From contig JAZRDC010000068.1 of assembly GCA_045660065.1 (NCBI GenBank), positions 10,908-74,907 of the forward strand: a stretch of DNA of 64,000 nt. Direction: 5' to 3'. The translations under genes were made by a program, and so were the position numbers. A model generated the notes under the pieces. That model worked only from the letters and a program-made list of their open reading frames with translations. It was not told where the DNA came from and made no database searches. Positions within the stretch are counted from its first letter, which is position 1, and every line of letters begins with the position of its first letter. The stretch comes from Clostridia bacterium (GTDB taxonomy: Bacteria > Bacillota > Clostridia > RGIG6154). This document shows positions 2,884 through 56,261 of this stretch, one piece after another.

Positions 2884-2958
2884 GTTTATCAGTCCTTTTT
2901 TGTAATATATAATAATAGTAATATAATTTTTGACGTTTGTAAAGCGCTTTTTTAAGAA

Positions 2959-2992
2959 AAATATCGTGTTTTGATAATAAAATACGATATTT
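2959..2992. promoter_or_regulatory. Inverted repeat in the divergent AraC/GH127 promoter region (candidate operator); LacI/CcpA-like core aaagcgcttt nearby at 2941-2950
   Basis: aaatatcgtgtttt-gataat-aaaatacgatattt. Confidence 0.4.
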
Positions 2993-3058
2993 GGCAATTG
3001 ACAATTATCAAATTACGAATTAAACTGAAATAAAGTATGTTAATAGGGAGAGATAACC

Positions 3059-4987
3059 GTGAAAGAATATAAAGTAAAAGACTTATTCGCTGAAGCACGA
3101 ATGGAAGATGTATGCATAAATGGTAAAATCGGTGCTTTGATGGACACATTCTTCAGGGAAAGAGTGTTGTCTGATTTTGCTAAAAATGTTATATATAAAG
3201 AAACTGAAGATGCTTTCCGCAATCAGATTGATGATGAAGCAGGAATTTATGGCATCTGGCAGGGCGAATACTGGGGTAAATGGGTTATAAGTGCGGCAAG
3301 AGTTGCAAGGTATTACGGGAACGAAGAACTCAAAGCCTTTTTGAAAAAGGCGGCATATAATCTTATGGAGTTCCAACGCGAAGACGGATATCTTGGTACA
3401 TATAAAGACTCTGCTTTTGTGTATCCTGCTGACCCTGAAGTTACCAAAGCCACTTTAGGTTGGGAGTGCAACTGGAACTGGAACATCTGGTGCAGAAAAT
3501 ACACTCTTTGGGGAATGGTTGAACTTTATCAGCTTCTTGGCGACAAAAAAATCCTTGAATGTGCTGTCCGCCATGCAAGTCAGTTGGTTGATGAAGTTAA
3601 AGAGAAAAATATTATAGTTGCAAAAACAGGAACTTTTTCAGGTGTTGCAAGTTGTTCTATTATGAAACCGATTCTTATTTTGTATCGCATTACAGAAGAT
3701 AAAAAATATCTTGATTTCTGCCTTGAAATTGCAGATTATTGGGAAAAAGAAAAACCGGGACTTATTGTTAACTCTTTAGCGGACAAAGACACCTGGGATT
3801 GGTATGATGATTTTAAATCATGGTCAAAGACCTATGAATCTCTTTCTTGTTTTGACGGATTGTTGGAACTTTATCGTGTAACAGGTGAGAAAAAATATCT
3901 TGATGCTACCGAAAAATTTTATGAAATCTTAGAAAGATGCGAAAAAAATCTTTTGTTCAGCGTTGGATATAACGATAACTACAGTAATGCTATAGCAGAA
4001 ATTAATGCTCTTACAGAACCTTGCGATGCAATTCATTATATCCGTGTTTGTCACGAGTTATTTAAACTCACAGGCAAGGTGAAATATCTTGACAGCTTAG
4101 AACTTTGCTATTTTAATCCTATGCTTGCAAGTCCCTGTAAAGACGGCAAGTGGGGAGCAAGAGTTGTCAGAGGCGCAAGTATGCAGGGGTATGCACACTA
4201 TCAGGCGAAAATGGAGCATAGCCATTGTTGCGTAAATAATATTCCAAGAGGTCTTTTGAACATAACAGAATGCTCTGTTATGACAAAGGGAAGTCAGTTG
4301 TTTGTGAATATGTACCATAACTATGATGCGTCTGTTGAAATTGACGGAAAGGCAGTAAAAGTAACTGTTAAAGGCGATTATGTTGCAGACAGCAGTGCGA
4401 AAATATATATCGATTCTTTGGTTGATGTTGTTTTGCGTATTCCTTTCTGGACAAAAACAGGAAAAGTTGTTGTAAACGGAAAAGAATTTATTGCAGAAGC
4501 AGGATTCTTTGCAATCAAAGCCACAGACATTCCTGAAATCGGCAAAAATACTATTGAAATTGAAATCGAATTTGACAACAGTGTTCAGATTTATCAGTTC
4601 AAAAAGCCTGTACCTCAGCATAAAGAGGGGGAATGGTGGTATCACAGCTGGTGCTGTTACAGAAACGGCGAGGAATGGAATTTTGACAAACACTTCGGCA
4701 GAAGCTTTTTAAACAGTCCTCGATGCACCTTAAGAAAAGGTGTTGTGCTTTTAAGCAGAAGTAAACTTATCGGCAACACCTCAGAAGAAATGTTTGACGG
4801 CATAAATCTTATCGATGACCAGTATACATGCACACTTCAAAAGTGCGAAACAGATGCAGATGTTCAGGGGATGTGGCTTGCAACCTTTACAAAAGGTGAT
4901 AAGAGCTTTACAACAAAAGTTTGCGATTTCCCATTTGCGGCAAACTTCGAACAGGCAGATCACGAATATTTCTCAATGTATTTTTAA
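3059..4987 (+). CDS. Glycoside hydrolase family 127/146 (beta-L-arabinofuranosidase-like, DUF1680)
   Basis: E-x-C (TEPCD) and CC (HSHCCVNN) Zn/catalytic motifs; GEYWGKW and NWNIW..KY segments typical of the family. Confidence 0.85.
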   Translation: MKEYKVKDLFAEARMEDVCINGKIGALMDTFFRERVLSDFAKNVIYKETEDAFRNQIDDEAGIYGIWQGEYWGKWVISAARVARYYGNEELKAFLKKAAYNLMEFQREDGYLGTYKDSAFVYPADPEVTKATLGWECNWNWNIWCRKYTLWGMVELYQLLGDKKILECAVRHASQLVDEVKEKNIIVAKTGTFSGVASCSIMKPILILYRITEDKKYLDFCLEIADYWEKEKPGLIVNSLADKDTWDWYDDFKSWSKTYESLSCFDGLLELYRVTGEKKYLDATEKFYEILERCEKNLLFSVGYNDNYSNAIAEINALTEPCDAIHYIRVCHELFKLTGKVKYLDSLELCYFNPMLASPCKDGKWGARVVRGASMQGYAHYQAKMEHSHCCVNNIPRGLLNITECSVMTKGSQLFVNMYHNYDASVEIDGKAVKVTVKGDYVADSSAKIYIDSLVDVVLRIPFWTKTGKVVVNGKEFIAEAGFFAIKATDIPEIGKNTIEIEIEFDNSVQIYQFKKPVPQHKEGEWWYHSWCCYRNGEEWNFDKHFGRSFLNSPRCTLRKGVVLLSRSKLIGNTSEEMFDGINLIDDQYTCTLQKCETDADVQGMWLATFTKGDKSFTTKVCDFPFAANFEQADHEYFSMYF

Positions 4988-4995
4988 TAAAAAAG

Positions 4996-5027
4996 GAGAA
5001 AACTCAACGGAGTTTTCTTCTTTTTTT
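4996..5027 (+). terminator. Intrinsic terminator
   Basis: agaaaactc-aacg-gagttttct followed by T-run. Confidence 0.8.
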
Positions 5028-5109
5028 ATTGAAATTGAAGAAAAAATGTGGTATAATTGGCAAATAGACGATTTGGTGGATTTACACTTTTTCATATGGA
5101 TATGAGGAG

Positions 5110-5945: not shown

Positions 5946-6800
5946 ATGTATAAAATTATTGACAAAAAAATATTGAATCCTACGGTAATTCAGCTTATGA
6001 TTGAAGCACCTTTGGTTGCAAACAAAGCAAAACCAGGGCAGTTTATTATCCTTCGCGTGGACGAAGAGGGAGAAAGAATTCCTCTTACAGTTGCAGGTGT
6101 TAATAAGGAAAATGGGACTGTTAAAATCATTTTTCAGGTGGTAGGCGGAACAACCAAAAGACTTTCATACAAGGAAGCAGGGGAGTATATTCAGGATTTC
6201 GTTGGCCCTTTGGGTGAAGCAACACATCTTGATGGACTTAAAAAAGTCTGTATCGTAGGCGGTGGCGTTGGTTGCGCTATTGCTATGCCTGTTGCACAGG
6301 AATTGCACAGACTTGGTGCTGAAGTTACAAGCATTATCGGTTTCAGAAACAAAGACCTTTTGATATTGGAAGATGAGTTTAAGGCTTGTTCTGACAGATT
6401 ACATATTATGACAGATGACGGCTCATACGGAAGAGAAGGAAATGTTACAATTCCTTTGAAAGAAATGTTAGATGAGGGCGAAAAGTTTGATATGATTATC
6501 ACAATCGGGCCTTTGATTATGATGAAGTTTGTAGTTGAAACTGCAAGACCATTCGGCATACCTGTTACTGCGTCTATGAATCCTATTATGATAGACGGAA
6601 CAGGAATGTGTGGCGGTTGCAGATTGACGCTTAACGTTGACGGCAAAAAGGTAACGAAGTTTGCCTGCGTTGACGGTCCTGATTTTAACGGATACGAGAT
6701 TGATTTCGATGAGGCAATGTCAAGGGGAAGAATGTATTCTGACTTTGAACGTCACGCCTTTGAAGAAAGTTGCAATCTCTTTAATAAGGAGGTGCTTTGA
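5946..6800 (+). CDS. nfnA: NfnA, electron-bifurcating transhydrogenase small subunit (copy 1)
   Basis: PGQFIILR..GERIPLT, GGGVG, DGTGMCGGCR...CVDGPDF; paired with nfnB. Confidence 0.85.
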   Translation: MYKIIDKKILNPTVIQLMIEAPLVANKAKPGQFIILRVDEEGERIPLTVAGVNKENGTVKIIFQVVGGTTKRLSYKEAGEYIQDFVGPLGEATHLDGLKKVCIVGGGVGCAIAMPVAQELHRLGAEVTSIIGFRNKDLLILEDEFKACSDRLHIMTDDGSYGREGNVTIPLKEMLDEGEKFDMIITIGPLIMMKFVVETARPFGIPVTASMNPIMIDGTGMCGGCRLTLNVDGKKVTKFACVDGPDFNGYEIDFDEAMSRGRMYSDFERHAFEESCNLFNKEVL

Positions 6801-6802
6801 TA

Positions 6803-8209
6803 ATGGCAAATATGGCACCAAAAAGAAACGAAATGCCAACACAGGATGCATTGGTCAGAGCACATAACTTTGATGAAGTTGCTCTTGGCTATTCAGAAGA
6901 AACTGCCATTGACGAGGCAATGAGATGTCTTAATTGCAAAAATATGCCTTGTGTTGACGGTTGCCCCGTAAAAATAAATATTCCTTCTTTTATTGCTAAA
7001 ATTAAAGAAGGAGAGTTTGAAGAAGCATATCAGATTATAACAAAATCATCTTCACTTCCTGCAGTTTGCGGAAGAGTTTGCCCACAGGAAACACAGTGCG
7101 AATCAAAATGCGTTCGCGGTATTAAAGGCGAGTCTGTGGGAATCGGAAGATTAGAGCGTTTTGTGGCAGACTGGCACAATACATTTTGTGATAGCGAAGT
7201 TGTGCGTCCTGAATCAAACGGACACAAGGTTGCGGTTGTAGGGTCAGGCCCGTCAGGTCTTACCTGCGCAGGGGATCTTGCAAAAAAAGGCTATGAAGTT
7301 ACAGTTTATGAGGCACTTCACGCCGCAGGCGGCGTGCTTGTGTATGGTATACCTGAATTCAGACTGCCAAAGAAAATTGTTGCAAAAGAAGTAAACACTT
7401 TAGAAAAATTAGGTGTAAAAATAGAAACAAACGTTGTAATTGGCAAAACTCTTACTATCGACGAGCTTTTTGATATGGGCTTTGAAGCGGTGTTTGTAGG
7501 ATCAGGTGCAGGTCTGCCTAACTTTATGGGAATACCGGGCGAGTCATTAAAAGGCGTGTATTCTGCAAATGAGTTTTTAACAAGAAGCAACCTTATGAAA
7601 GCATATCTTTCAAATTCACAGACACCTGTTATGAAAGGCGGAAAAGTTGCAGTAGTAGGTGGCGGAAACGTTGCTATGGATGCGGCAAGAACTGCTTTAA
7701 GACTTGGTGCGGAAAAGGTTTATATTGTGTACCGCCGTTCAATGGACGAGCTTCCTGCAAGACGTGAGGAAGTAGAACATGCAGAGGAAGAAGGAATTGA
7801 ATTCAGACTTCTTTGCAATCCTTTGGAAATCATCGGCTACAACAATCCCGACGATCCAAGAGATGCCCAAAACGGTTTTGTTACAGGCATGACTTGCATA
7901 AAAATGGAACTTGGCGAGCCTGATGAAAAAGGCAGAAGACGTCCTGTGGAAATCCCGGGCAGTGAATTTACCATTAATGTTGACACTGTTATTATGTCAA
8001 TCGGTACATCACCAAATCCTTTGATAAAATCTACAACAGAAGGCCTGGAAGTAAATTCAAGAGGCGGAATTGTTGTAAACGAAGAGGGTCTTACATCAAG
8101 AAGCGGAATTTATGCAGGCGGCGATGCGGTAACAGGTGCGGCAACAGTAATTTCTGCAATGGGAGCAGGAAAAACTGCAGCTAAAGCCATTGACGAATAT
8201 CTCAAATAA
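6803..8209 (+). CDS. nfnB: NfnB / GltA-like NADPH-dependent oxidoreductase large subunit (copy 1)
   Basis: RCLNCK..PC..GCP Fe-S motifs, CGRVCPQE, GSGPSG, GGGNVAMD, AGGDAVTG; SD aaggaggtg before ATG 6803. Confidence 0.85.
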   Translation: MANMAPKRNEMPTQDALVRAHNFDEVALGYSEETAIDEAMRCLNCKNMPCVDGCPVKINIPSFIAKIKEGEFEEAYQIITKSSSLPAVCGRVCPQETQCESKCVRGIKGESVGIGRLERFVADWHNTFCDSEVVRPESNGHKVAVVGSGPSGLTCAGDLAKKGYEVTVYEALHAAGGVLVYGIPEFRLPKKIVAKEVNTLEKLGVKIETNVVIGKTLTIDELFDMGFEAVFVGSGAGLPNFMGIPGESLKGVYSANEFLTRSNLMKAYLSNSQTPVMKGGKVAVVGGGNVAMDAARTALRLGAEKVYIVYRRSMDELPARREEVEHAEEEGIEFRLLCNPLEIIGYNNPDDPRDAQNGFVTGMTCIKMELGEPDEKGRRRPVEIPGSEFTINVDTVIMSIGTSPNPLIKSTTEGLEVNSRGGIVVNEEGLTSRSGIYAGGDAVTGAATVISAMGAGKTAAKAIDEYLK

Positions 8210-22817: not shown

Positions 22818-23062
22818 TGCTCAATGCGAAATTATCATTTCGCATTGGTTTTGCAAATTTGTTCGCTCGCGCATATTTTGTTGCGGGCAACAAAATATCA
22901 AATTTATAGGAATAAAATCCCAGGCACATGTCCTGGGATTTTATGATTTAAGCATTTTTAGTACAGCTTCGGGTTCGGGTTGCCCGTTGTGAGAATTTTT
23001 TCCTATTCCCGTTGGGGACAATGTGCAATTATCATTTCGCATTGGTTTTTCAAATTTGTATA
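22818..23062. repeat. Palindrome-rich region flanked by 33-bp direct repeats; divergent relative of the 8431 and 30303 elements
   Basis: Direct repeats at 22830-22862 and 23027-23059 (1 mismatch); several hairpins; shares gtac..cttcggg and ttttttcctat.ccc with the other copies. Confidence 0.6.
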
Positions 23063-48496: not shown

Positions 48497-49372
48497 ATGG
48501 AACTTATTGATACATATCTTGGATATCTTGAAAATAAACGAAAACTTTCAGGCAATACTCTTTTGTCGTACAAGCACGATTTGTACGATTATTTTGAGTA
48601 TCTTTCTTTGAACAAACTTACAATCACAAGAGCAAGAAAAACCACTGTTACAGCCTATCTTTCGCTTCTGCAGCGAGATGGCAAAAGTGCGACTACCGTT
48701 GCAAGGTCGTTGGCATCGGTAAGAGGCTTGTATAAATACTTAAATGTTATCGAGCGTATGAAAAGAAACCCCACTGATGGAATTTTAGCCCCGAAAACAG
48801 AAAGAAAACTTCCTGAGATTTTAACTGTAAAAGAAGTGGACAGGTTGTTGTCAGGACCATCGGGGGAAGATTTTAAAAGTGTAAGAGATAAGGCAATGCT
48901 TGAACTTTTGTACGCAACAGGAATAAGAGCGTCTGAATTGATAACTTTAAAAAATGACGATATAGAACTTGATAAAGAAATTTTAAGGTGTGAGGGTCAG
49001 GACAGGCGTGTGCTTCCCTTTGGAGTGTTGGCGAAAACTGCACTTTCAAAATATCTTGAAGTTTCTCCGTTTCATAACGGTTCAAAAGAGCAAAGTACAT
49101 ATCTGTTTGTAAATGTATATGGAAAACCACTTACACGTCAGGGGTTCTGGAAAATAATAAAGCAGTACAAAAAAAGCGCAGGGATCGAAAAAGAAATAAA
49201 TCCTAAAATTTTAAGAACCTCTTTTGCAGCGCATCTTTTGGAAAATGGGGCAGATATCAAGTCCCTTCAGGAGTTTATGGGGCATTCTTCAATTGCCTCA
49301 ACGCAGTTCTATGAGAACCTGAAAAGCAGTAAATTAAGAGAAGTTTATGCAAAATATCATCCAAGAGGGTGA
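48497..49372 (+). CDS. xerD: Tyrosine recombinase XerD
   Basis: RDKAMLELLYATGIR, LR.SFA.HLLENGAD, GH....TQ.Y. Confidence 0.9.
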   Translation: MELIDTYLGYLENKRKLSGNTLLSYKHDLYDYFEYLSLNKLTITRARKTTVTAYLSLLQRDGKSATTVARSLASVRGLYKYLNVIERMKRNPTDGILAPKTERKLPEILTVKEVDRLLSGPSGEDFKSVRDKAMLELLYATGIRASELITLKNDDIELDKEILRCEGQDRRVLPFGVLAKTALSKYLEVSPFHNGSKEQSTYLFVNVYGKPLTRQGFWKIIKQYKKSAGIEKEINPKILRTSFAAHLLENGADIKSLQEFMGHSSIASTQFYENLKSSKLREVYAKYHPRG

Positions 49373-49480
49373 TTTTTTGGAAAAATATAAAAATTTTTAA
49401 ACTTTTTTTCAATAAACTATTGATTTTTCTTAAAAAAGATGTTACAATATAATACGCTTGATGAAAACGGAGGTGAAAAT

Positions 49481-49747
49481 ATGCCAAATATTAAATCTGC
49501 AAAGAAAAGAGTTAAGGTTACAGCTACAAAGACACTTCGTAACCAGGTAATCAAAACTAACATCAAAACTTTTATTAAAAAGTTTGACGCAGCAGTTGTA
49601 AAAGGTGACAAAGCATTGAGCCAGGAACTTTACAGAGCAACTGTTAAAAAGATTGACCAGGCTGTTGCAAAAGGCATCTACAAGAAGAACACAGCATCAA
49701 GAAAGAAATCTCAGCTTACATTGAAATTTAACACTTTAGGTGCTTAA
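49481..49747 (+). CDS. rpsT: 30S ribosomal protein S20
   Basis: MPNIKSAKKRVK...KNTASRKKS; SD ggaggtg. Confidence 0.97.
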   Translation: MPNIKSAKKRVKVTATKTLRNQVIKTNIKTFIKKFDAAVVKGDKALSQELYRATVKKIDQAVAKGIYKKNTASRKKSQLTLKFNTLGA

Positions 49748-49820: not shown

Positions 49821-49896
49821 AGGGGTATAGCTCAGTTGGTAGAGCAGCGGTCTCCAAAACCGCGTGCCGTGAGTTCGAATCTTACTGCCCCTGCCA
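49821..49896 (+). tRNA. tRNA-Trp (CCA)
   Basis: Acceptor stem aggggta/tgcccct, anticodon stem gcggt-ctCCAaa-accgc, TTCGA T-loop, encoded CCA end; 76 nt. Confidence 0.97.
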
Positions 49897-50020
49897 AACG
49901 AAAGAACCTTGATATGGCTTAATAAATGGCTTTATCAGGGTTTTTGTTTTGTTTTAAAAATAATTTTGAATATTTTGTTTTTAGTGAAAAAGTGTTAAAA
50001 AATATAGGGTTTTTGAAAAT

Positions 50021-50041
50021 ATTGTTGTCAAAATTGTTGTC
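50021..50041. repeat. Candidate integrase arm-type sites
   Basis: attgttgtc at 50021 and 50033, between att and the integrase stop codon. Confidence 0.5.
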
Positions 50042-50056
50042 CAAAATGGTGAAAAA

Positions 50057-51187
50057 TTAAAGCTCGTTGAGCTTGGTTATTGCTTCTTCTTTTTGCTCGT
50101 CCATCAGGTGGACATAGGTGTCGTAAGTGAAGGAAACTGATTCGTGGCCGAGAAGTTCGGAAACAATTTTTATATCTGTGCCTTTTTTTATCAGGAGTGA
50201 TGCAAAGGTGTGCCTAAGGGCGTGCAGACCAACATATTCATAGCCGAAGGCATCGAGCATTGAGTATAGTGTTCTGGTTAGGTTTCTTGGTGATGGCTGA
50301 TTGCCCTGGGTGTTTGTTATTACGAGGTCTGTTCCTGATTTCCCTTCTGTCATAATCTTGAAGGCATCTAATGCTTTTGTACCCAAAAATATTTTTCTGT
50401 TTGATTTTTTTGTCTTTGGTGTGTTCTGGGTTATGGTTTCATATTTTGTTTTAGAGTTATCAGAACGCGTTTTAACTGTTTTTACATTCTTTTTTATTAT
50501 TATCTGATTTGTTTTTGCATCATAGTCGTTTATGGTAAGTGCCAGAGCTTCTCCGATTCTTAAACCAGTATATATTAAAAATATGATTGCATAATCAAAC
50601 TGATAATAAGGTTTTCCCGTTTTCCACTTTTTACCTACAAGGGTGTTTAAATTGTTTACCTGTTCTTCGGTTAAAAATTGTATTTCCTTTATATCGTTTT
50701 TCTTTTCCCGGGGGATGATTATATCTTCTGCGGGATTTTCTTTTAAAACCTTGTTTTTGATTGCCTGCTTAAATATCTGATTGAGGTTCTGATGGATCTT
50801 CCTTAATACAGAGTATGACATATCGGAATTATCAAAGAGAGTTTCCTGGATAACATCAGTTGTGATTTCGTCCAGAGGAAGAGAACCAAGTGCAGGAAGA
50901 ATGTGGCCTGTTACTATCCATTCTACTGTATCATAAGATGAACGCTTTAGAGATTTGAATTTACTTTTCATCCAATTTTCGGCAAAGGTACTTAAAAGTT
51001 GCTTCTCACCTTTTATATAACCTTCTTCGTAGTCTTTGATATAAAGTTTCATTTTGCGCATAGCATCCTGTGCTGATTTGGAAGAATAAAAGCTTTTTCT
51101 TTTGGAATCAATCATTACAGAAGCCATCCAGCGCCCATCGGAACGTTTTACAACGGTTCCTTCTCCTTTTAGTCTTTCTTTTGCCAT
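50057..51187 (-). CDS. Phage tyrosine integrase
   Basis: N-terminal GEGTV.KR.DGRW arm-binding domain; TGLRIGE, H.LRHTFAS, LLGH, TY.TY.H. Confidence 0.96.
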   Translation of the reverse strand: MAKERLKGEGTVVKRSDGRWMASVMIDSKRKSFYSSKSAQDAMRKMKLYIKDYEEGYIKGEKQLLSTFAENWMKSKFKSLKRSSYDTVEWIVTGHILPALGSLPLDEITTDVIQETLFDNSDMSYSVLRKIHQNLNQIFKQAIKNKVLKENPAEDIIIPREKKNDIKEIQFLTEEQVNNLNTLVGKKWKTGKPYYQFDYAIIFLIYTGLRIGEALALTINDYDAKTNQIIIKKNVKTVKTRSDNSKTKYETITQNTPKTKKSNRKIFLGTKALDAFKIMTEGKSGTDLVITNTQGNQPSPRNLTRTLYSMLDAFGYEYVGLHALRHTFASLLIKKGTDIKIVSELLGHESVSFTYDTYVHLMDEQKEEAITKLNEL

Positions 51188-51239
51188 AATTTCACCACCT
51201 TTGTTTGAGTTCCGTCCTTAAAACAGGGCGGTTGTTTTT

Positions 51240-51608
51240 TTAATCAATAGGATGTGTATTCATCCATAAAAGTACAAGTGTAGGGATTGTTATTAAAACT
51301 CCAATTATTGTTAATACTTTTCTTTTGGCTGAAGGCTTGTTGTTTTCGAATTCGCTGAACCCAAAGAAGCAAACAAAGCCAGATATCCAAAATATTGGTA
51401 TTAATATAAAAAGGCATGCAAATATTTTTAAAATGGTATCAAGAATACCTTCGTATGTGTGAATTAATAAAATGCACATTATTGTGTAAAGCGTAGTCCA
51501 GAACATTGATTTTGACATGAAAAGAGCCTTTTCAGAATCCTTTAACTTTTGGCGCAATTCGTTTCCTTCTTTTAATTCTTCAAAATATAAATCTTTATAA
51601 TCGTCCAT
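51240..51608 (-). CDS. Hypothetical membrane protein (3 TM segments)
   Basis: SD aggag; three hydrophobic stretches. Confidence 0.75.
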   Translation of the reverse strand: MDDYKDLYFEELKEGNELRQKLKDSEKALFMSKSMFWTTLYTIMCILLIHTYEGILDTILKIFACLFILIPIFWISGFVCFFGFSEFENNKPSAKRKVLTIIGVLITIPTLVLLWMNTHPID

Positions 51609-51621
51609 TTTAATCTCCTTG

Positions 51622-52125
51622 TTAAAAACACCTTGAGCAGGGGGCGTAGTAGTTTGCTTCTGCTGCTTGTATGGTGTATGTAGTTGTACCTGTTTTATTT
51701 TTTAAATAACTGCATGTGGGCTTATGATATTTTCTGCCTGTGCGGGTTACAATAACTTGCTCTGTGATATCAAGAATGTCGTTAGGGGCTTCCTGTTCTT
51801 TAGCAGGTTGTTGTGTTGATTGTGCGGGGACATCTGCTTTATACGAAGCGGCAGCACTTTCAACTTTTATAATCAGTTCATTAATAAAATCGGAAGTTGT
51901 TTCTGTTTTAGTTTCTTCCATAGGTTCTGCAACCTGGATTATAGTTTCTTGCAGAGCAGAAGCGGGAATGAAAGTTTTTGAATATGCAAAACAACTAAAA
52001 GCGATGGAAAGCAATAATAAAAGTGTGAGTAAAGTTGAGCCTTTACCTGTTTTTTTTATTTTGAGGGTACAAGAGCCTTGTTGCAAAAACATTTGCTTCT
52101 TCCTCTTTATGATCTGATGTGTCAT
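51622..52125 (-). CDS. TM-anchored protein with C-terminal Ada-like metal-binding domain; possibly the frameshifted C-terminus of ImmA
   Basis: Hydrophobic LLTLLLLLSIAF; VIVTRTGRKYH..TC.YL...PCSRC; 83-nt overlap with immA across an A8 tract. Confidence 0.7.
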   Translation of the reverse strand: MTHQIIKRKKQMFLQQGSCTLKIKKTGKGSTLLTLLLLLSIAFSCFAYSKTFIPASALQETIIQVAEPMEETKTETTSDFINELIIKVESAAASYKADVPAQSTQQPAKEQEAPNDILDITEQVIVTRTGRKYHKPTCSYLKNKTGTTTYTIQAAEANYYAPCSRCF

Positions 52126-52441
52126 AATAACCGTTTGTTTGATTTATATGGTTCATATAAATATGTCCTATCTCGTGGCATAGGATGAATGGCAAATCAC
52201 TGCTGTGGACTGCACCACGGTAAAATGTGTAACTTTTCTTTCCTATTGTACAACTTACAGAAGAATAATGCTTTGCATGTTCTGTGAGTTTTAGCTCTTT
52301 TAATAAATCTTCGCTGCTTTCATAGGTAAGAAGAGTGTATCCCATTTTTGATATTATGTTTTTAATATCGCGAAGTCCGGGAATACCTTTTAATTTAAAC
52401 TCCTTTTTTAATTCCTTTACTGCTAAATCGACATTTTTCAT
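52043..52441 (-). CDS. ImmA/IrrE-family metalloprotease (anti-repressor type)
   Basis: HEIGH (HExxH) and EEEANVFA motifs; SD ggagg; located between cI and int. Confidence 0.88.
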   Translation of the reverse strand: MKNVDLAVKELKKEFKLKGIPGLRDIKNIISKMGYTLLTYESSEDLLKELKLTEHAKHYSSVSCTIGKKSYTFYRGAVHSSDLPFILCHEIGHIYMNHINQTNGYYDTSDHKEEEANVFATRLLYPQNKKNR

Positions 52442-52524
52442 TATAAAACCTCCAAATTATAGTTTATACTACAATATTAAAGGTTTTATTTGGTAATTAC
52501 AATGGTAAATTGTGTTAGGAGTTA

Positions 52525-53208
52525 TTATTTAGATTTAGTTTTAGATTTGTCGTCGTGCATAAAGTATTTGATTTTACTGCGTATGCCATCTATATGTTCA
52601 TTCAAATCATCATTAATGTTGTTTCCCATAGGGTCAAGTATAAAATCAACGCCCTCACGCCTTGCAAGTTTTGCAGCAGGCACGAAATCACTATCGCCTG
52701 CGATAAGTATTATCTGATCAACTTGCTTTTTCAATACCATAGATGCAATATCAGTTCCAAGTTTCATATCCATAGTTTTTTGTTTTATGTTTAGGACAAA
52801 ATCGGTTTCTGTTATATCTTCTAAAGTTCTTTTGCCTGAAAATAACGATTTAACTACATTGGGCTTTAGATTATAACCAAGGTCATTGTCAGACAAGCGA
52901 CCTAATCTTAATGCAAATTTTCTTTTTGATTTTAAACTGTTTAAAAAAGTAGTCATCCAATCGTAAAGTTCATTTTTCATTTTTATATTTTTCTTTAAGA
53001 AAGGGTGATAAACATTTTTGTCAGTTGGTGGACAATCGTAATAAAATATACGATATAGCAAGGCTGCTTCAGGTCCTTTATTTTGTAAATGCAACCTGCA
53101 ATAATGCTCCAATTCTTCTGCTCTAACCTCTGGAATTTTGTGTCCAAAAAGGTGCTCAGCTCTTTTGCGGTAAAAACCACCGTCTACAAGTACAGCGACT
53201 CTAATCAT
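52525..53208 (-). CDS. NYN-domain (LabA/DUF88, PIN-fold) putative ribonuclease
   Basis: VLVDGG, IFYYD, QK..DM.LG.D, GDSDFVPA...R.EG motifs; SD aaggag. Confidence 0.88.
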   Translation of the reverse strand: MIRVAVLVDGGFYRKRAEHLFGHKIPEVRAEELEHYCRLHLQNKGPEAALLYRIFYYDCPPTDKNVYHPFLKKNIKMKNELYDWMTTFLNSLKSKRKFALRLGRLSDNDLGYNLKPNVVKSLFSGKRTLEDITETDFVLNIKQKTMDMKLGTDIASMVLKKQVDQIILIAGDSDFVPAAKLARREGVDFILDPMGNNINDDLNEHIDGIRSKIKYFMHDDKSKTKSK

Positions 53209-53232
53209 AAGTAAATCTCCTTAATAAAAGAT

Positions 53233-53321
53233 AAAAAAAGAGCCCAAGGTTTCATCACTCTCCGTATGGTGGAGGGAATACTCCCATGGGCGTATAATCA
53301 CAATATACAATTGTTATTGTG
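53233..53321 (-). ncRNA. Putative ~90-nt structured RNA/attenuator upstream of the NYN gene
   Basis: Follows TTGACA-18-TATAAT; 5' hairpin, long imperfect GC-rich hairpin, then U7. Confidence 0.55.
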
Positions 53322-53326
53322 TTATT

Positions 53327-53356
53327 ATTATAATATGCCCAAAGGGTAGTTGTCAA
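53327..53356 (-). promoter_or_regulatory. SigA promoter of the sRNA-NYN cassette
   Basis: Perfect TTGACA (53356-53351) and TATAAT (53332-53327), 18-nt spacer. Confidence 0.75.
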
Positions 53357-53388
53357 TACAATTTCAAAAAAAAATAAAAATTTTTATC

Positions 53389-53859
53389 TTATGTGTGTTT
53401 TACAACATTGTCATCAGAGTTGACACCGCCACCGTCTGCAGCCCATTTTAATGTATCATCAGAATCAACTGTTCTGATCTTATCATTAAAGTCTATAACA
53501 GTCTTTTTGTCTTCCTTAGTATATTTTTCATTTCCGATAAGGATATCGACATATTCATTGGTTTTTTCTTTACCAAGGTCATTTAATTGGTTGTATTTTT
53601 GTAAAAACGATAAATTGTTTGATATGTTAGCCAAATGTTTTTCTTCAGATGTACCTAAAAGCCAATCGGGGTTTACATTTAAATAATTTCCAATCGCTTC
53701 TATGATAGGCTTTTTAATAGTGCGAATTTTACCTTTTTCATATCTTTGAATTGTCGATTTATTTAGACAAAGTTTTTTTCCAAGTTCTTCTTGGGTGAGA
53801 CCTGATTCAATCCGAATTTCTTTAATTCTGCTTGCTATTAATAATTTGTTGGGGGTCAT
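53389..53859 (-). CDS. CI-like phage repressor (XRE HTH)
   Basis: RIKEIR...LTQEELG..L..NKSTIQRYEKG; divergent from the early genes. Confidence 0.92.
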   Translation of the reverse strand: MTPNKLLIASRIKEIRIESGLTQEELGKKLCLNKSTIQRYEKGKIRTIKKPIIEAIGNYLNVNPDWLLGTSEEKHLANISNNLSFLQKYNQLNDLGKEKTNEYVDILIGNEKYTKEDKKTVIDFNDKIRTVDSDDTLKWAADGGGVNSDDNVVKHT

Positions 53860-53894
53860 TTTATCATCACCTCAAATCAATGTTAGCATAAAAA

Positions 53895-54003
53895 ATTGCA
53901 AAATGCAATACAAAAACAACAAAAAAATAAAAAAAATTGCAAAATGCTATTGACAAGTTGCAAAATGCGTGTTAATATATATTCGAAAGTTGCATAACGC
54001 AAC
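53895..54003. promoter_or_regulatory. Genetic switch: four operators (consensus GTTGCA-aaa-TGCAAC) overlapping divergent promoters
   Basis: Sites at 53895, 53936, 53958 and 53989; rightward TTGACA at 53950; leftward TTGCAT-17-TAACAT. Confidence 0.85.
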
Positions 54004-54020
54004 GAAAGAGAGGTGAGATT

Positions 54021-54224
54021 GTGGGAAAGATTCCTTATATGACAGAAAGGATAGTCAATTTCAAAGAGTTGAGAAATACAATTGAAGGTTGTTATATTAT
54101 GGCTCAATTTCTGCAACAAGAAAGCCCTCATAAGGAGAGCTTTGAACCATTAATTGAAGATTTAAAAAAAGCACGAGATTTCCAATTCGAAATTGAGGTA
54201 AAGAAGATAAGTTATTGCGAGTAA
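54021..54224 (+). CDS. Phage hypothetical protein, first early gene
   Basis: SD gaggtg, GTG start. Confidence 0.6.
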   Translation: MGKIPYMTERIVNFKELRNTIEGCYIMAQFLQQESPHKESFEPLIEDLKKARDFQFEIEVKKISYCE

Positions 54225-54496
54225 CCATCTTCATTTACATCAATCTGTTGCTTGAATTCTACTGAAGCCAGACAACGACTTCTCATGGTGCAGAATCTAT
54301 ATATGCTTAATTTAGGATCTTGTTTGGAAGGTGGCAATTTGAGGTTTTGCACTATGGGACATTCACAGGCGACATAGGTTGCAACAGAAGGATTATCTTT
54401 GTCATTAAAATGATACCTTGCTAAAAGTGTTATTTCTTTGTTCCATAACGGACAATGGTGTTGTTTGCCGACAAAGGTGTAGTACATCTCATTCAT
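54212..54496 (-). CDS. Cys/His-rich hypothetical protein with its own leftward promoter
   Basis: SD gaggtg; TTGTAA and TG-TATAAT upstream. Confidence 0.7.
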   Translation of the reverse strand: MNEMYYTFVGKQHHCPLWNKEITLLARYHFNDKDNPSVATYVACECPIVQNLKLPPSKQDPKLSIYRFCTMRSRCLASVEFKQQIDVNEDGYSQ

Positions 54497-54561
54497 AGGT
54501 TATCACCTCACTTTCAAGGGTGATTATAACATAATAAACAAATTTTTACAAGGAGGGAATT

Positions 54562-54765
54562 ATGGTTAATACAAGTAAAATAAAAAGTCGTATGGTACTT
54601 TGTGGAATTACACAAAGTGGTTTGGCAGAAAAGCTTAAGCTTTCGCAAACAACTGTAAACCAGAAGATTAATAATGCAAGAAAAACTACAATTGAAGAAG
54701 CGTTATTAATTAAAAAGCATCTTGATATATCTGATTGCGAATTTGGAGAATATTTTTTTGTTTAA
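54562..54765 (+). CDS. Cro-like HTH protein 1
   Basis: KIKSRM...ITQ..LAEKL.LS..TVNQKIN; SD aggaggg. Confidence 0.85.
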   Translation: MVNTSKIKSRMVLCGITQSGLAEKLKLSQTTVNQKINNARKTTIEEALLIKKHLDISDCEFGEYFFV

Positions 54766-54768
54766 AGA

Positions 54769-54832
54769 GTTGCAAAATGCAACAAGTGACAAAATATCAC
54801 TTGTGAAAATCAGAAGTGACGAAACGTCACTT
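54769..54832. promoter_or_regulatory. Fifth GTTGCA operator plus two operators of a second family (AAGTGAC-N5-(G/A)TCACTT)
   Basis: gttgcaaaatgcaac at 54769-54783; aagtgacaaaatatcactt at 54784-54802; aagtgacgaaacgtcactt at 54814-54832. Confidence 0.75.
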
Positions 54833-54849
54833 TAGAGAGAGGTGAGTAA

Positions 54850-55041
54850 ATGTTAAGAATAGCAGAAGTGAGAAAGTCAAGGGGTCTTTCACAAGAAGAA
54901 GTGGCGAAAGAGATAGGCATAGATAGAAGCACTGTAGCAAAGTGGGAAACAGGTAAGGCAAAGCCAAAAGCTGATACATTGCTTGCTTTATCGGCGTTGT
55001 TTAATTGTTCTATTGATGAAATTCTTGGGAATGAGAGGTGA
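54850..55041 (+). CDS. Cro-like XRE HTH protein 2
   Basis: RKSRGLSQEEVAKEIGIDRSTVAKWETG..KP; SD gaggtg. Confidence 0.9.
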   Translation: MLRIAEVRKSRGLSQEEVAKEIGIDRSTVAKWETGKAKPKADTLLALSALFNCSIDEILGNER

Positions 55042-55045
55042 TGTT

Positions 55046-55246
55046 GTGGATTTAGAAAAATTAAATTCTAAAATCAAAGAAATTGGAATAAAAAAGAAAG
55101 CCATTGCCAAAGAGTTTGGGATTAGCGTTCAGGCACTAAATAAAAAACTGGCAGGGGATACGAAGATTACAGTAGATGATGCAAGTATATTTTGCGAGGT
55201 TTTAAGAATTAAGAGTGATAAAGAAAAAGTTGAGATATTTTTATGA
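55046..55246 (+). CDS. Cro-like HTH protein 3
   Basis: GIKKKAIAKEFGIS.QAL.KKL.G; SD gaggtg before GTG 55046. Confidence 0.8.
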   Translation: MDLEKLNSKIKEIGIKKKAIAKEFGISVQALNKKLAGDTKITVDDASIFCEVLRIKSDKEKVEIFL

Positions 55247-55467
55247 TTGATCAGGAGGAGAGTATGAAAATAACTGTTCAGATTTGGGAGGAAAATCAAG
55301 GAATAAATTTTGATATAGAAGTACCAAGCAAAAAAGTAGCTTCAGATATTATATCAAAGTTTATTGAAGAAGATGTAAGTTTGGTGAGAATAGAAAAGCA
55401 GCACCAAAACGATGCTGCAAATCAGATAAATTCTAAAGGTTCTGGTGTATCCAGTCCCACTGCTTAG
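55243..55467 (+). CDS. Phage hypothetical protein
   Basis: Translationally coupled to the upstream gene (ATGA overlap). Confidence 0.5.
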   Translation: MIDQEESMKITVQIWEENQGINFDIEVPSKKVASDIISKFIEEDVSLVRIEKQHQNDAANQINSKGSGVSSPTA

Positions 55468-55696
55468 ATGTAAGAAAACCTTTGATTGGTTTTTCAACCT
55501 TGCAAATTATCATTCTGTCATTGCTGTCAAGGTTTGCGGTAACCTTTGACTGAACAGCATCAATGGACAACGAGGATTTTACAAGATATGTAGTGGTAAC
55601 ATATTTACACCAGGGACCTAATGATTTTATAGAATTTTCCACTTCTTCGCGATTTGAAGTGGGAGATTTTAAATCATAAGAAATCATATAAACCAT
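55433..55696 (-). CDS. Small Cas2/VapD-like ferredoxin-fold protein, lysogen-oriented
   Basis: N-terminal YMISYDL strand as in Cas2/VapD; SD ggaggtg; own promoter-like region. Confidence 0.65.
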   Translation of the reverse strand: MVYMISYDLKSPTSNREEVENSIKSLGPWCKYVTTTYLVKSSLSIDAVQSKVTANLDSNDRMIICKVEKPIKGFLTSKQWDWIHQNL

Positions 55697-55868
55697 TTAT
55701 TCACCTCCAATCAATAATAGAATGTTGTGTTCGAACTAAATATATTATACCATATATTGTTAAAAATCACAACTTTTACTTTCTATCTTTATAAGTGAAG
55801 ATGTTGTAAATGGCTTAAAATCAAGGTTGAATAGTGTTAAAAATTTTACGTTTAAAGGAGAAATTGAA

Positions 55869-56261
55869 ATGAAAAGAATTAAGTGTTTTGCTTTAGGGTT
55901 AGTTTTTGTATTGTTGCTTACAGGATGTACTGAAGCGGATAGAGTATCTTATAATCTTTCAAAAGAAGCGGACAATTTTAATGTTGTACGTCAATTGACA
56001 GTTATCAACTGCATTGAGGGTGATGTGTTGTTTCAGATGACAGGTAAACTTTCTATTACTGCAGATGGTATGGACAACCAATTAGAAATTGTTGCAGAGG
56101 ATAATGGAACATATGTAAAACATTTTGTAGGATTAAGCGACAATGTAACTTACGTTGTAGAGGATCTGAATTTAGGTGCAAATGAAGTGAATAAATATAG
56201 ATACACTTTGAATTTCAATCCCAAAATGTGGATACCGATTGAGTTTAAAACTATTGATTAG
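55869..56261 (+). CDS. Phage lipoprotein
   Basis: MKR...LLLTGC lipobox; SD aaggag. Confidence 0.85.
   Translation: MKRIKCFALGLVFVLLLTGCTEADRVSYNLSKEADNFNVVRQLTVINCIEGDVLFQMTGKLSITADGMDNQLEIVAEDNGTYVKHFVGLSDNVTYVVEDLNLGANEVNKYRYTLNFNPKMWIPIEFKTID

Follow-up and report, generated by a model that had tools for sequence, protein, structure and literature searches.

The locus described here raises the question of why a prophage gene for a predicted RNase should be preceded by a small structured RNA with a promoter and a terminator-like end of its own. It lies in a stretch of 64,000 nucleotides (nt) from a Clostridia bacterium (contig JAZRDC010000068.1, assembly GCA_045660065.1), referred to below as the window, and consists of a predicted small RNA followed by the gene for an NYN-domain protein. 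An earlier note, made from the letters alone, had proposed that the RNA neutralizes the NYN enzyme as an antitoxin. Comparison with related loci established that the RNA and the NYN protein are a functional pair, and the interpretation in the earlier note was partly supported. The parts of the cassette, in the direction of transcription, are as follows.

53351-53356, minus strand: -35 hexamer TTGACA of the RNA gene's own promoter (12/12 promoter match, 18-nt spacer)

53337-53349, minus strand: promoter-spacer segment CTACCCTTTGGGC, partly complementary in sequence to the 5' arm of P2

53327-53332, minus strand: -10 hexamer TATAAT, from the sequence and the promoter scan

53299-53321, minus strand: P1, the 5'-terminal hairpin of the small RNA, in which CACAATA (53321-53315) pairs with TATTGTG (53305-53299) in the predicted fold

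53242-53291, minus strand: P2, a long imperfect G+C-rich hairpin, GCCCAUGGG...CCUUGGGC, from the fold, Rfam and covariation

53233-53239, minus strand: U7 tract, forming a terminator-like end with P2, from which it is separated by UC

53217-53222, minus strand: Shine-Dalgarno sequence AAGGAG of the NYN gene

52525-53208, minus strand: NYN-domain protein of 227 residues (Pfam NYN), a predicted metal-dependent endoribonuclease, with its ATG at 53208

Re-reading of the minus strand found each element that had been listed before, namely the promoter, the two hairpins, U7, the Shine-Dalgarno sequence and the open reading frame; the 24-nt gap given after U7 was right as a distance, with the trivial slip that it reaches the ATG and not the Shine-Dalgarno sequence. 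TTGACA-18-TATAAT was the sole 12/12 promoter match when positions 50000-56000 of the window were scanned. With the usual spacing of about 7 nt after the -10 hexamer, the RNA is predicted to start near 53320 and to be about 88 nt long (53320-53233). The 101-nt stretch folded into exactly P1 and P2 (-26.9 kcal/mol, z = -3.66; 0/200 shuffles as stable), and in this fold the Shine-Dalgarno sequence was free of hairpin pairing. P2 comprises an outer stem, an internal loop with AGUA (53282-53279) opposite GAA (53253-53251), a middle stem, an inner stem CUCC/GGAG and a 7-nt apical loop ACCAUAC (53270-53264). Because there is no room for a promoter between the U tract and the Shine-Dalgarno sequence, NYN must come from read-through transcripts. 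The terminator scan detected no obvious terminator between the cI-like repressor gene upstream and the RNA promoter (53389 to 53356), and transcripts from cI therefore probably also enter the hairpin.

Loci encoding close relatives of the window NYN protein, 80 from genomes and 73 from viruses, were sampled for the comparison; L-numbers below denote the loci compared. A similar hairpin was near-universal 15-30 nt before the NYN start codon, or up to about 100 nt before it when the protein is N-terminally extended, and was found with NYN in Firmicutes, Treponema, Lentisphaerae, Succinatimonas, Rhizomicrobium and an Oxalobacteraceae strain. A conserved, covarying structure upstream of NYN homologues had been named in the earlier note as a check on its proposal, and it was found: in an alignment of 80 hairpin sequences (A1), the structure predicted by RNAalifold had compensatory changes in 14/14 pairs. 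With our own 18-pair structure, 83.9% of the cells of A1 were paired and 311 cells carried double changes, against 102 ± 10 after shuffling (0/500 shuffles as high), and the covariation score was 0.55 for the true register versus 0.11-0.18 for slid registers. By these measures the P2 structure is under selection. The most conserved unpaired bases in A1 were the UA of AGUA on the 5' strand and the GAA on the 3' strand, and from these bases the AGUA/GAA loop is assigned as a sarcin-ricin (loop E) motif.

The flanks of the hairpin were conserved as well. A U-rich tail (at least 5 U within 9 nt past the stem) was present in 115 and a -10-like box upstream in 106 of 121 unique canonical instances, and a -35/-10 pair with at least 10/12 matches to the consensus, whose end lies 24-58 nt ahead of the hairpin, was found in 51/83 non-redundant instances versus 4% of shuffles when up to 90 nt upstream of the hairpin was searched. 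In relatives the position of P1 tends to be taken by one or two further hairpins of variable sequence and loop length (median z -1.8); a 5' hairpin of the P1 type is absent in the Staphylococcus and Bacteroidota forms, for which an RNA of about 60 nt is predicted, and predicted lengths among relatives range from 60 to 120 nt. A linker, (G)UUAA(n)A(n)G, recurs in the alignment. Together these features define a new bacterial RNA motif that covaries strongly and whose sarcin-ricin loop probably binds a protein.

The linkage of this motif to NYN was examined with a covariance model (R1) built from A1, which contained no Staphylococcus sequence. R1 scored the window copy at 70.1 bits over 53231-53304 and gave one strong hit directly upstream of NYN in 60/61 canonical-type genome loci with upstream sequence, the exception (L059) having a degenerate copy. 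It also recognized the RNA, in each case immediately before NYN, in phages outside the seed alignment, namely Streptococcus phage Javan85 (68.4 bits), Dorea phage DO134P1 (54.6), Moraxella phage Mcat4 (40.1) and the P2-like Burkholderia phage phiE202 (38.4); the gene order in Javan85 is XRE repressor, RNA, NYN, integrase. In a search blind to NYN, IMG/VR was scanned with a degenerate pattern of the hairpin core, which yielded 44 unique true motifs, 32 of them with an NYN homologue within 200 nt downstream. Phages from at least six phyla of bacteria share the pair, which on this breadth is probably an RNA-controlled module for toxicity or defence that has not been described before. Its decay was asymmetric, with the RNA kept beside a possibly decayed or replaced NYN gene (Staphylococcus loci L168, L171, L177 and L197; also L167, L174 and L195), whereas the reverse case, NYN lacking the hairpin, was practically absent from the sampled loci. 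The hairpin is quite probably the specific ligand of NYN; this estimate is the sum of those for the antitoxin, the cis-acting leader and the phage-internal regulator, which are weighed below.

Almost all relatives had a single copy of the RNA per locus. L057 carries two tandem, divergent, separately promoted copies before NYN (3777-3849 and 3919-3994), L204 carries one copy before NYN and one before an integrase (6435-6508 and 7447-7520), and in L119 a degenerate orphan copy lies on the other strand (5001-5073, minus). R1 detected no second credible hit in the window; a weak match at 22904-22950 on the plus strand (23.1 bits, E 0.06) misses the central part of the model and is probably a chance hit to an ordinary terminator hairpin.

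More distant NYN genes were preceded by other hairpin classes. Bacteroidota NYN genes (L060-L077; about 50% identity) have an expanded hairpin with an outer stem, an internal loop CUACG/CCGAC, a stem of 7 bp and a large loop with AUAG at its end, with compensatory changes in 9/15 pairs, a TAnnTTTG promoter box just upstream and no 5' hairpin. The enterobacterial NYN protein (285 residues, 38% identity to the window protein) follows a hairpin AGCCCAG-CC-CCGUU-CGCAGA-loop-UCUGC-AU-AACGG-CU-CUGGGCU with U7-8 behind it and TTGACG-17-TAGATT before it, and compensatory changes were found among relatives in its outer and inner stems. R1 gave the E. coli copy 11.9 bits and left it unrecognized, which indicates a different hairpin class, in agreement with inspection and covariation. 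Each of the canonical, Bacteroidota and enterobacterial RNA classes pairs with its own NYN clade, and since the variant classes keep a promoter, a terminator-like structured RNA and NYN, the layout is general.

The Rfam scan placed a known family, RF03535 (TEG147), over 53236-53296 of the window (full model 1-60, 40.0 bits, E 7.6e-6), and the alignment retains all helices of the window hairpin. The score is below the TEG147 gathering cut-off of 56.1 bits, which indicates that the Rfam model is narrow and restricted to Staphylococcus; by its alignment the window RNA belongs to the same wider family, beyond the current boundary of Rfam. In the other direction, R1 scored the Staphylococcus loci with the Teg147 sequence at 59-65 bits, and one of them, L197, is a bona fide RF03535 member (87.4 bits in Rfam, 64.8 bits with R1), so that Teg147 and the window RNA form one family. 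Both carry the AGUA/GAA sarcin-ricin loop, and the window RNA has an extra 5' hairpin. At E values up to 10, the scan of the window region returned no known regulatory RNA besides TEG147, and no abiF, pemK, riboswitch or ribozyme.

Teg147 is a 60-nt small RNA of Staphylococcus aureus from a genomic island, without validation or assigned function (PMC5826253, PMC3053349), and is listed as a discrete 60-nt transcript in strain HG003 (PMC5826253). It entered Rfam during a course (PMC7779021) and is classed there as cis-regulatory; an independent listing by JAR3D puts RF03535 with the Rfam families that have the strongest sarcin-ricin loop predictions (PMC13085918). In the literature we found nothing that assigns Teg147 a function. 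No intact NYN gene was found downstream in the Staphylococcus loci examined. Two short collinear NYN remnants were found there, covering codons 1-10 and 35-58 and reading MQ*IKVAILIYG... and RYCHLCLK... (E 3.2 and 0.87, individually non-significant), which is suggestive of Teg147 being an orphan from a decayed NYN cassette. The L197 copy, at 4098-4170, matches S. aureus records OR844992 and OR849933; an azaaromatic (yjdF) riboswitch (Rfam 98.9 bits) at 2933-3033, about 1.1 kb upstream of Teg147 in the same locus, is probably unrelated.

The protein partner has been annotated so far as "NYN domain-containing" or as PHROG unknown. It matched Pfam NYN (PF01936) with 36.3 bits against a cut-off of 24.2, aligned over residues 138-189 only, and PHROG 5783 (unknown function) with E 5e-82; NCBIfam gave a sub-threshold TIGR00288 NYN match only, and a sequence search of the PDB gave no meaningful relative. 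An AlphaFold2 model (predicted local distance difference test, pLDDT, 90; predicted template-modelling score, pTM, 0.83) had as its best PDB match the NYN domain of the mouse endoribonuclease MARF1 (5yaa, E 1e-4, target-normalized TM 0.66), and contained an inserted beta-rich subdomain at about residues 60-140. From this model we confidently assign the protein to the PIN-like alpha/beta NYN fold. The earlier note had described the acidic motifs as intact, and indeed D9, D58, D147, D153, D172 and D174 (GDSDF) were invariant in 37 homologues of 59-85% identity, as was the tail ARREG.DF...EHIDG. The family is compact (about 220-245 residues) and large: close relatives of the window protein number in the thousands, and clustering at 50% identity gave 167 clusters with E of at most 1e-30 and 978 with E of at most 1e-10.

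The surroundings of the window copy were those of a lysogeny module, with the following neighbours.

53389-53859, minus strand: cI-like XRE repressor, directly upstream on the same strand (Pfam HTH_3, E 1.4e-14)

52043-52441, minus strand: ImmA/IrrE-like metalloprotease, downstream (Pfam Peptidase_M78, E 2.2e-5)

50057-51187: tyrosine integrase (Pfam)

49821-49896: tRNA-Trp, adjoining the integrase

These Pfam assignments and the 12/12 promoter agree with the earlier description of a cassette with its own promoter in a slot between a cI-like repressor and an ImmA-like protease. On the opposite strand past cI there are several Cro-like helix-turn-helix (HTH) genes and a phage VG64-family gene; the region is the lysogeny module of a prophage, and the tRNA-Trp gene is its likely attachment site. 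Just beyond the prophage edge lie rpsT and a XerD-like recombinase gene (48497-49747), and the G+C content of the host genome is low, about 32-36%. Two small open reading frames between the ImmA-like gene and the integrase (51240-52125, minus strand) encode 167 residues, with a weak match to PHROG 14556 at the C-terminus, and 122 residues, which are hydrophobic; neither has a family assignment, and both may be further lysogen-expressed cargo.

Clustering of the neighbours at 102 non-redundant loci gave no conserved protein partner or antitoxin candidate. What recurred was a cI-like HTH gene upstream (46 loci, 44 on the same strand) and, downstream, a tyrosine integrase (34 loci) or a serine recombinase (15 loci); with only repressor and integrase/recombinase families recurring, a type II-like protein antitoxin was rejected. 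The carriers belong to Firmicutes, Spirochaetes, Bacteroidota, Proteobacteria and others. In Firmicutes the cassette is usually located between cI and the integrase. In the lambdoid Escherichia phage ev099 (L258 3380-4358) the order is cI, NYN, N, with NYN on the cI strand, a slot that we take, from the lambda map, to be the rexA-rexB position. NYN homologues were detected by tblastn in 65 phage records, 48 of them phages that convert to Shiga toxin 2a (Stx2a) production, in which, by homology with ev099, NYN would lie just after cI. The loci of this E. coli group are L258 and L263-L301. Of 5426 complete E. coli genomes, 275 contained DNA matching the E. coli cassette, in 74 of them at nearly its full length; several O121 strains are among the best-matching genomes listed. 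In Mcat4 the cassette follows the terminase gene. In phiE202 (L259 1780-2284) it sits between portal gene and integrase, with a pair annotated as ribonuclease toxin and antitoxin next to it, at a site that resembles a hotspot for accessory or defence genes. Most relatives of the carrier phages lack the cassette. This distribution is that of a mobile accessory cassette (moron or defence), expressed, as its positions indicate, in the lysogen.

What the pair does was then considered. The reading that we favour, at slightly less than an even chance, is a type III-like RNA-antitoxin module acting in abortive infection or addiction. In such a module the strong constitutive promoter would yield an abundant RNA of about 88 nt, with P2 doubling as intrinsic terminator, and NYN would be made only by read-through, so that the RNA would be in large excess over the enzyme. 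The hairpin would be the specific ligand that holds NYN inactive, with loop E and the conserved apical loop as recognition features, and the RNA might in addition be the autoregulatory operator of NYN in cis. A collapse of the RNA supply, upon transcription shut-off by an infecting phage or upon prophage loss, would free the RNase, which would cut cellular or phage RNA and thereby cause abortive infection, exclusion or prophage addiction. RNA-protein binding, enzyme inhibition, toxicity, the trigger and the defence phenotype are what we infer in this scheme.

Several known systems resemble parts of it. In the type III systems ToxIN, CptIN and TenpIN (AbiQ), a promoter, an RNA, a Rho-independent terminator and an endoribonuclease gene follow one another, the RNA is expected to be in excess and the systems have a role in abortive infection; the cassette shares with them an RNA gene directly upstream of the enzyme gene, on the same strand, with a predicted terminator between the two. 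A ToxI-like tandem-repeat architecture was rejected, as the window contains no repeat of the RNA unit. Some PIN-domain toxins, such as VapC20 and VapC26 of Mycobacterium tuberculosis, cut the sarcin-ricin loop of 23S ribosomal RNA (rRNA) and show that toxins of this kind can recognize such a loop; VapC shares the PIN-like fold superfamily with NYN but is neutralized by a protein antitoxin (type II), and no sequence relationship between the NYN protein and VapC was found. The lambda rexA-rexB genes occupy the same lysogen-expressed exclusion slot as the ev099 cassette, on the strand of cI, but show no homology to it, Rex being a two-protein membrane system without an RNA.

The closest match in logic is AbiF_Cd/RCd22 of a Clostridioides difficile prophage, in which a structured non-coding RNA upstream of a toxic RNA-targeting protein both regulates in cis and neutralizes in trans by direct binding (bioRxiv 10.1101/2025.04.15.648962). 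That system is likewise prophage-borne, has the same gene order and follows the logic that is proposed for the NYN cassette; its protein is of the Abi_2/AbiD/F type and HEPN-like, whereas the cassette protein is NYN/PIN-like, and the window cassette had no abiF motif in the Rfam scan (E up to 10) and no Abi_2 hit in Pfam. In AvcID, a single non-repeat small RNA, AvcI, holds an enzyme other than ToxN, AvcD, inactive until phage transcription shut-off (PMC10511110); AvcD, however, is a deaminase of deoxycytidine mono- and triphosphate (dCMP/dCTP) and not an RNase, and its RNA is unrelated to the cassette RNA. Literature searches for NYN with type III toxin-antitoxin, prophage, lambdoid/rexA, Shiga toxin or LabA found no paper on an NYN-RNA pairing. 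The earlier note did not recognize the pairing as a named system, and neither a named system nor a paper with it turned up here, but the RNA itself was already in Rfam as TEG147. The pairing, its breadth and the identity with Teg147 appear to be new.

The antitoxin reading draws on the lack of a protein partner, on the co-diversification of RNA class and protein clade, on the existence of RNA-only remnants when NYN-only loci are practically never seen, and on the layout shared with the AbiF_Cd/RCd22 precedent; the promoter and U-rich tail suit an abundant RNA, and the slot is lysogen-expressed and accessory.

Other observations weigh against it. The antitoxins of ToxIN, CptIN and TenpIN are tandem direct repeats cut by the toxin, whereas the cassette has a single hairpin, and their toxins are ToxN/Kid-like, whereas Pfam, PADLOC and the fold search gave NYN only for the cassette protein, whose fold differs from those of all established type III toxins. 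PADLOC-DB v2, which the earlier note had suggested consulting, returned weak partial matches only (PDLC01154 NYN, E 1.2e-5, residues 146-203; HEC-09, E 4e-3), and no full-length match to any system component. The U tract is poor in some proteobacterial copies (L078, L052), which means that termination is not universal. Among the 44 IMG/VR motifs, 12 (27%) had no NYN behind them: three Staphylococcus loci with only the short collinear remnants, loci with unrelated genes behind the RNA (DUF4160, SH3_3, a SocA/Panacea antitoxin-domain protein, an integrase), and loci with no obvious gene behind the RNA. These RNA copies before unrelated genes or none indicate that the RNA-promoter unit may have a role independent of NYN. 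Finally, a purely cis-acting leader accounts for most of the same facts.

Intact RNA before an unrelated gene or no gene was seen at L195, L167, L174, L187, L179, L186, L194 and L228; the cargo is the SocA/Panacea antitoxin-domain protein at L195, DUF4160 at L167 and SH3_3 at L174, with proteins of unknown kind at two others. The variety of cargo suggests cassette exchange behind a retained promoter-RNA unit.

A bolder version of the antitoxin reading, which we regard as improbable, is that the hairpin mimics the natural target of NYN, a loop of sarcin-ricin type like the one in 23S rRNA. The cassette would then represent a new, phylum-spanning type III-like class, the first with a PIN-like NYN toxin, filling the exclusion slot of many temperate phages, among them lambdoid phages of E. 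coli and Stx2a-converting ones. The choice of promoter, taken up below, may add another layer to it.

The main rival is the cis-acting autoregulatory leader, in which the hairpin would serve the NYN mRNA as operator and terminator. NYN would keep its own expression low by binding or cleaving the 5' leader, its real substrates would lie elsewhere, and the short RNA would be a by-product. Self-limitation through the own mRNA is familiar from RNase III, RNase E and eukaryotic Regnase-1, and such a leader would fit the constant position of the hairpin on the same strand, directly upstream of the gene and 15-30 nt from the start codon, its double use as terminator, the tracking of protein clade by RNA class and the filing of TEG147 as cis-regulatory in Rfam. 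However, a dedicated near-consensus promoter right before a terminator exceeds the needs of feedback, the Shine-Dalgarno sequence is not sequestered by the hairpin, and RNA copies persist without NYN and before unrelated genes. On this balance we rate a leader acting in cis as unlikely, if still to be taken seriously; it is compatible with the antitoxin model, as RCd22 does both.

The copies without NYN lead to another proposal, that the RNA is an element in its own right, either a prophage small RNA or an insulator/terminator of the repressor operon with a host factor bound to loop E, and that NYN is merely its commonest cargo. The 27% of motif-first copies that lack NYN, some of them before a Panacea antitoxin, DUF4160 or an integrase, would be expected, as would the usual position right after cI, which has no separate terminator in the window, and the expression of Teg147 as a small RNA in S. 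aureus (PMC5826253) where no intact NYN was found downstream. Yet practically every NYN gene of the family has the hairpin, also outside lysogeny modules (Mcat4, the P2-like hotspot), and the shift of hairpin class with NYN clade is hard to explain without a direct relationship between NYN and the RNA. We rate the proposal as improbable.

Very improbable, in our estimate, is a phage-internal regulator that is neither toxin nor defence, with NYN degrading lytic or repressor transcripts in lysis-lysogeny control and the RNA tuning its dose. The cassette does have cI, ImmA and the integrase as neighbours and probably shares a transcript with cI. Against such a role, it is found in phages of unrelated type and at different genome positions (lambdoid, P2-like, Mcat4, Firmicute siphoviruses), and most relatives of these phages lack it, as expected of a mobile accessory gene and not of a core regulator. 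An ordinary cI terminator next to a fortuitous promoter-like match, conceivable in AT-rich DNA with 34 promoter-like matches versus 23.8 expected in the 6 kb scanned, is already refuted by the covariation, the conservation across phyla, the Rfam match and the conserved promoter position.

One feature of the promoter may bear on termination at P2. In many loci the RNA promoter has a spacer complementary to the 5' arm of P2, part of AGUA included. At least 8 contiguous pairs were found in 22/83 loci, against 12.0 in permutations (p ~0.001), and the mean complementary run was 6.73 versus 6.17 ± 0.12 after permutation; clear examples are L037, L195, L120, L029, L015, L047, L145 and L050, and the window copy has CTACCCTTTGGGC. 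As the spacer segment would be present only in transcripts from cI, it could serve as an antiterminator that depends on promoter choice: transcripts from the repressor promoter would carry the segment complementary to P2, and the choice of promoter may decide whether the hairpin forms and transcription terminates. The minimum-energy fold of the window read-through RNA keeps the main hairpin, and for this reason the antiterminator is retained as a lead only.

If the RNA is indeed the antitoxin of NYN, a widespread toxin or defence module would be added for a large protein family so far without function, and for the Staphylococcus small RNA Teg147 both its partner and its origin would be accounted for. 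Standard cloning, toxicity and plaque assays could decide the matter. Among the carriers are lambdoid phages of E. coli and Stx2a-converting phages, so there may be medically relevant lysogens in which the cassette influences superinfection and the stability of the prophage.

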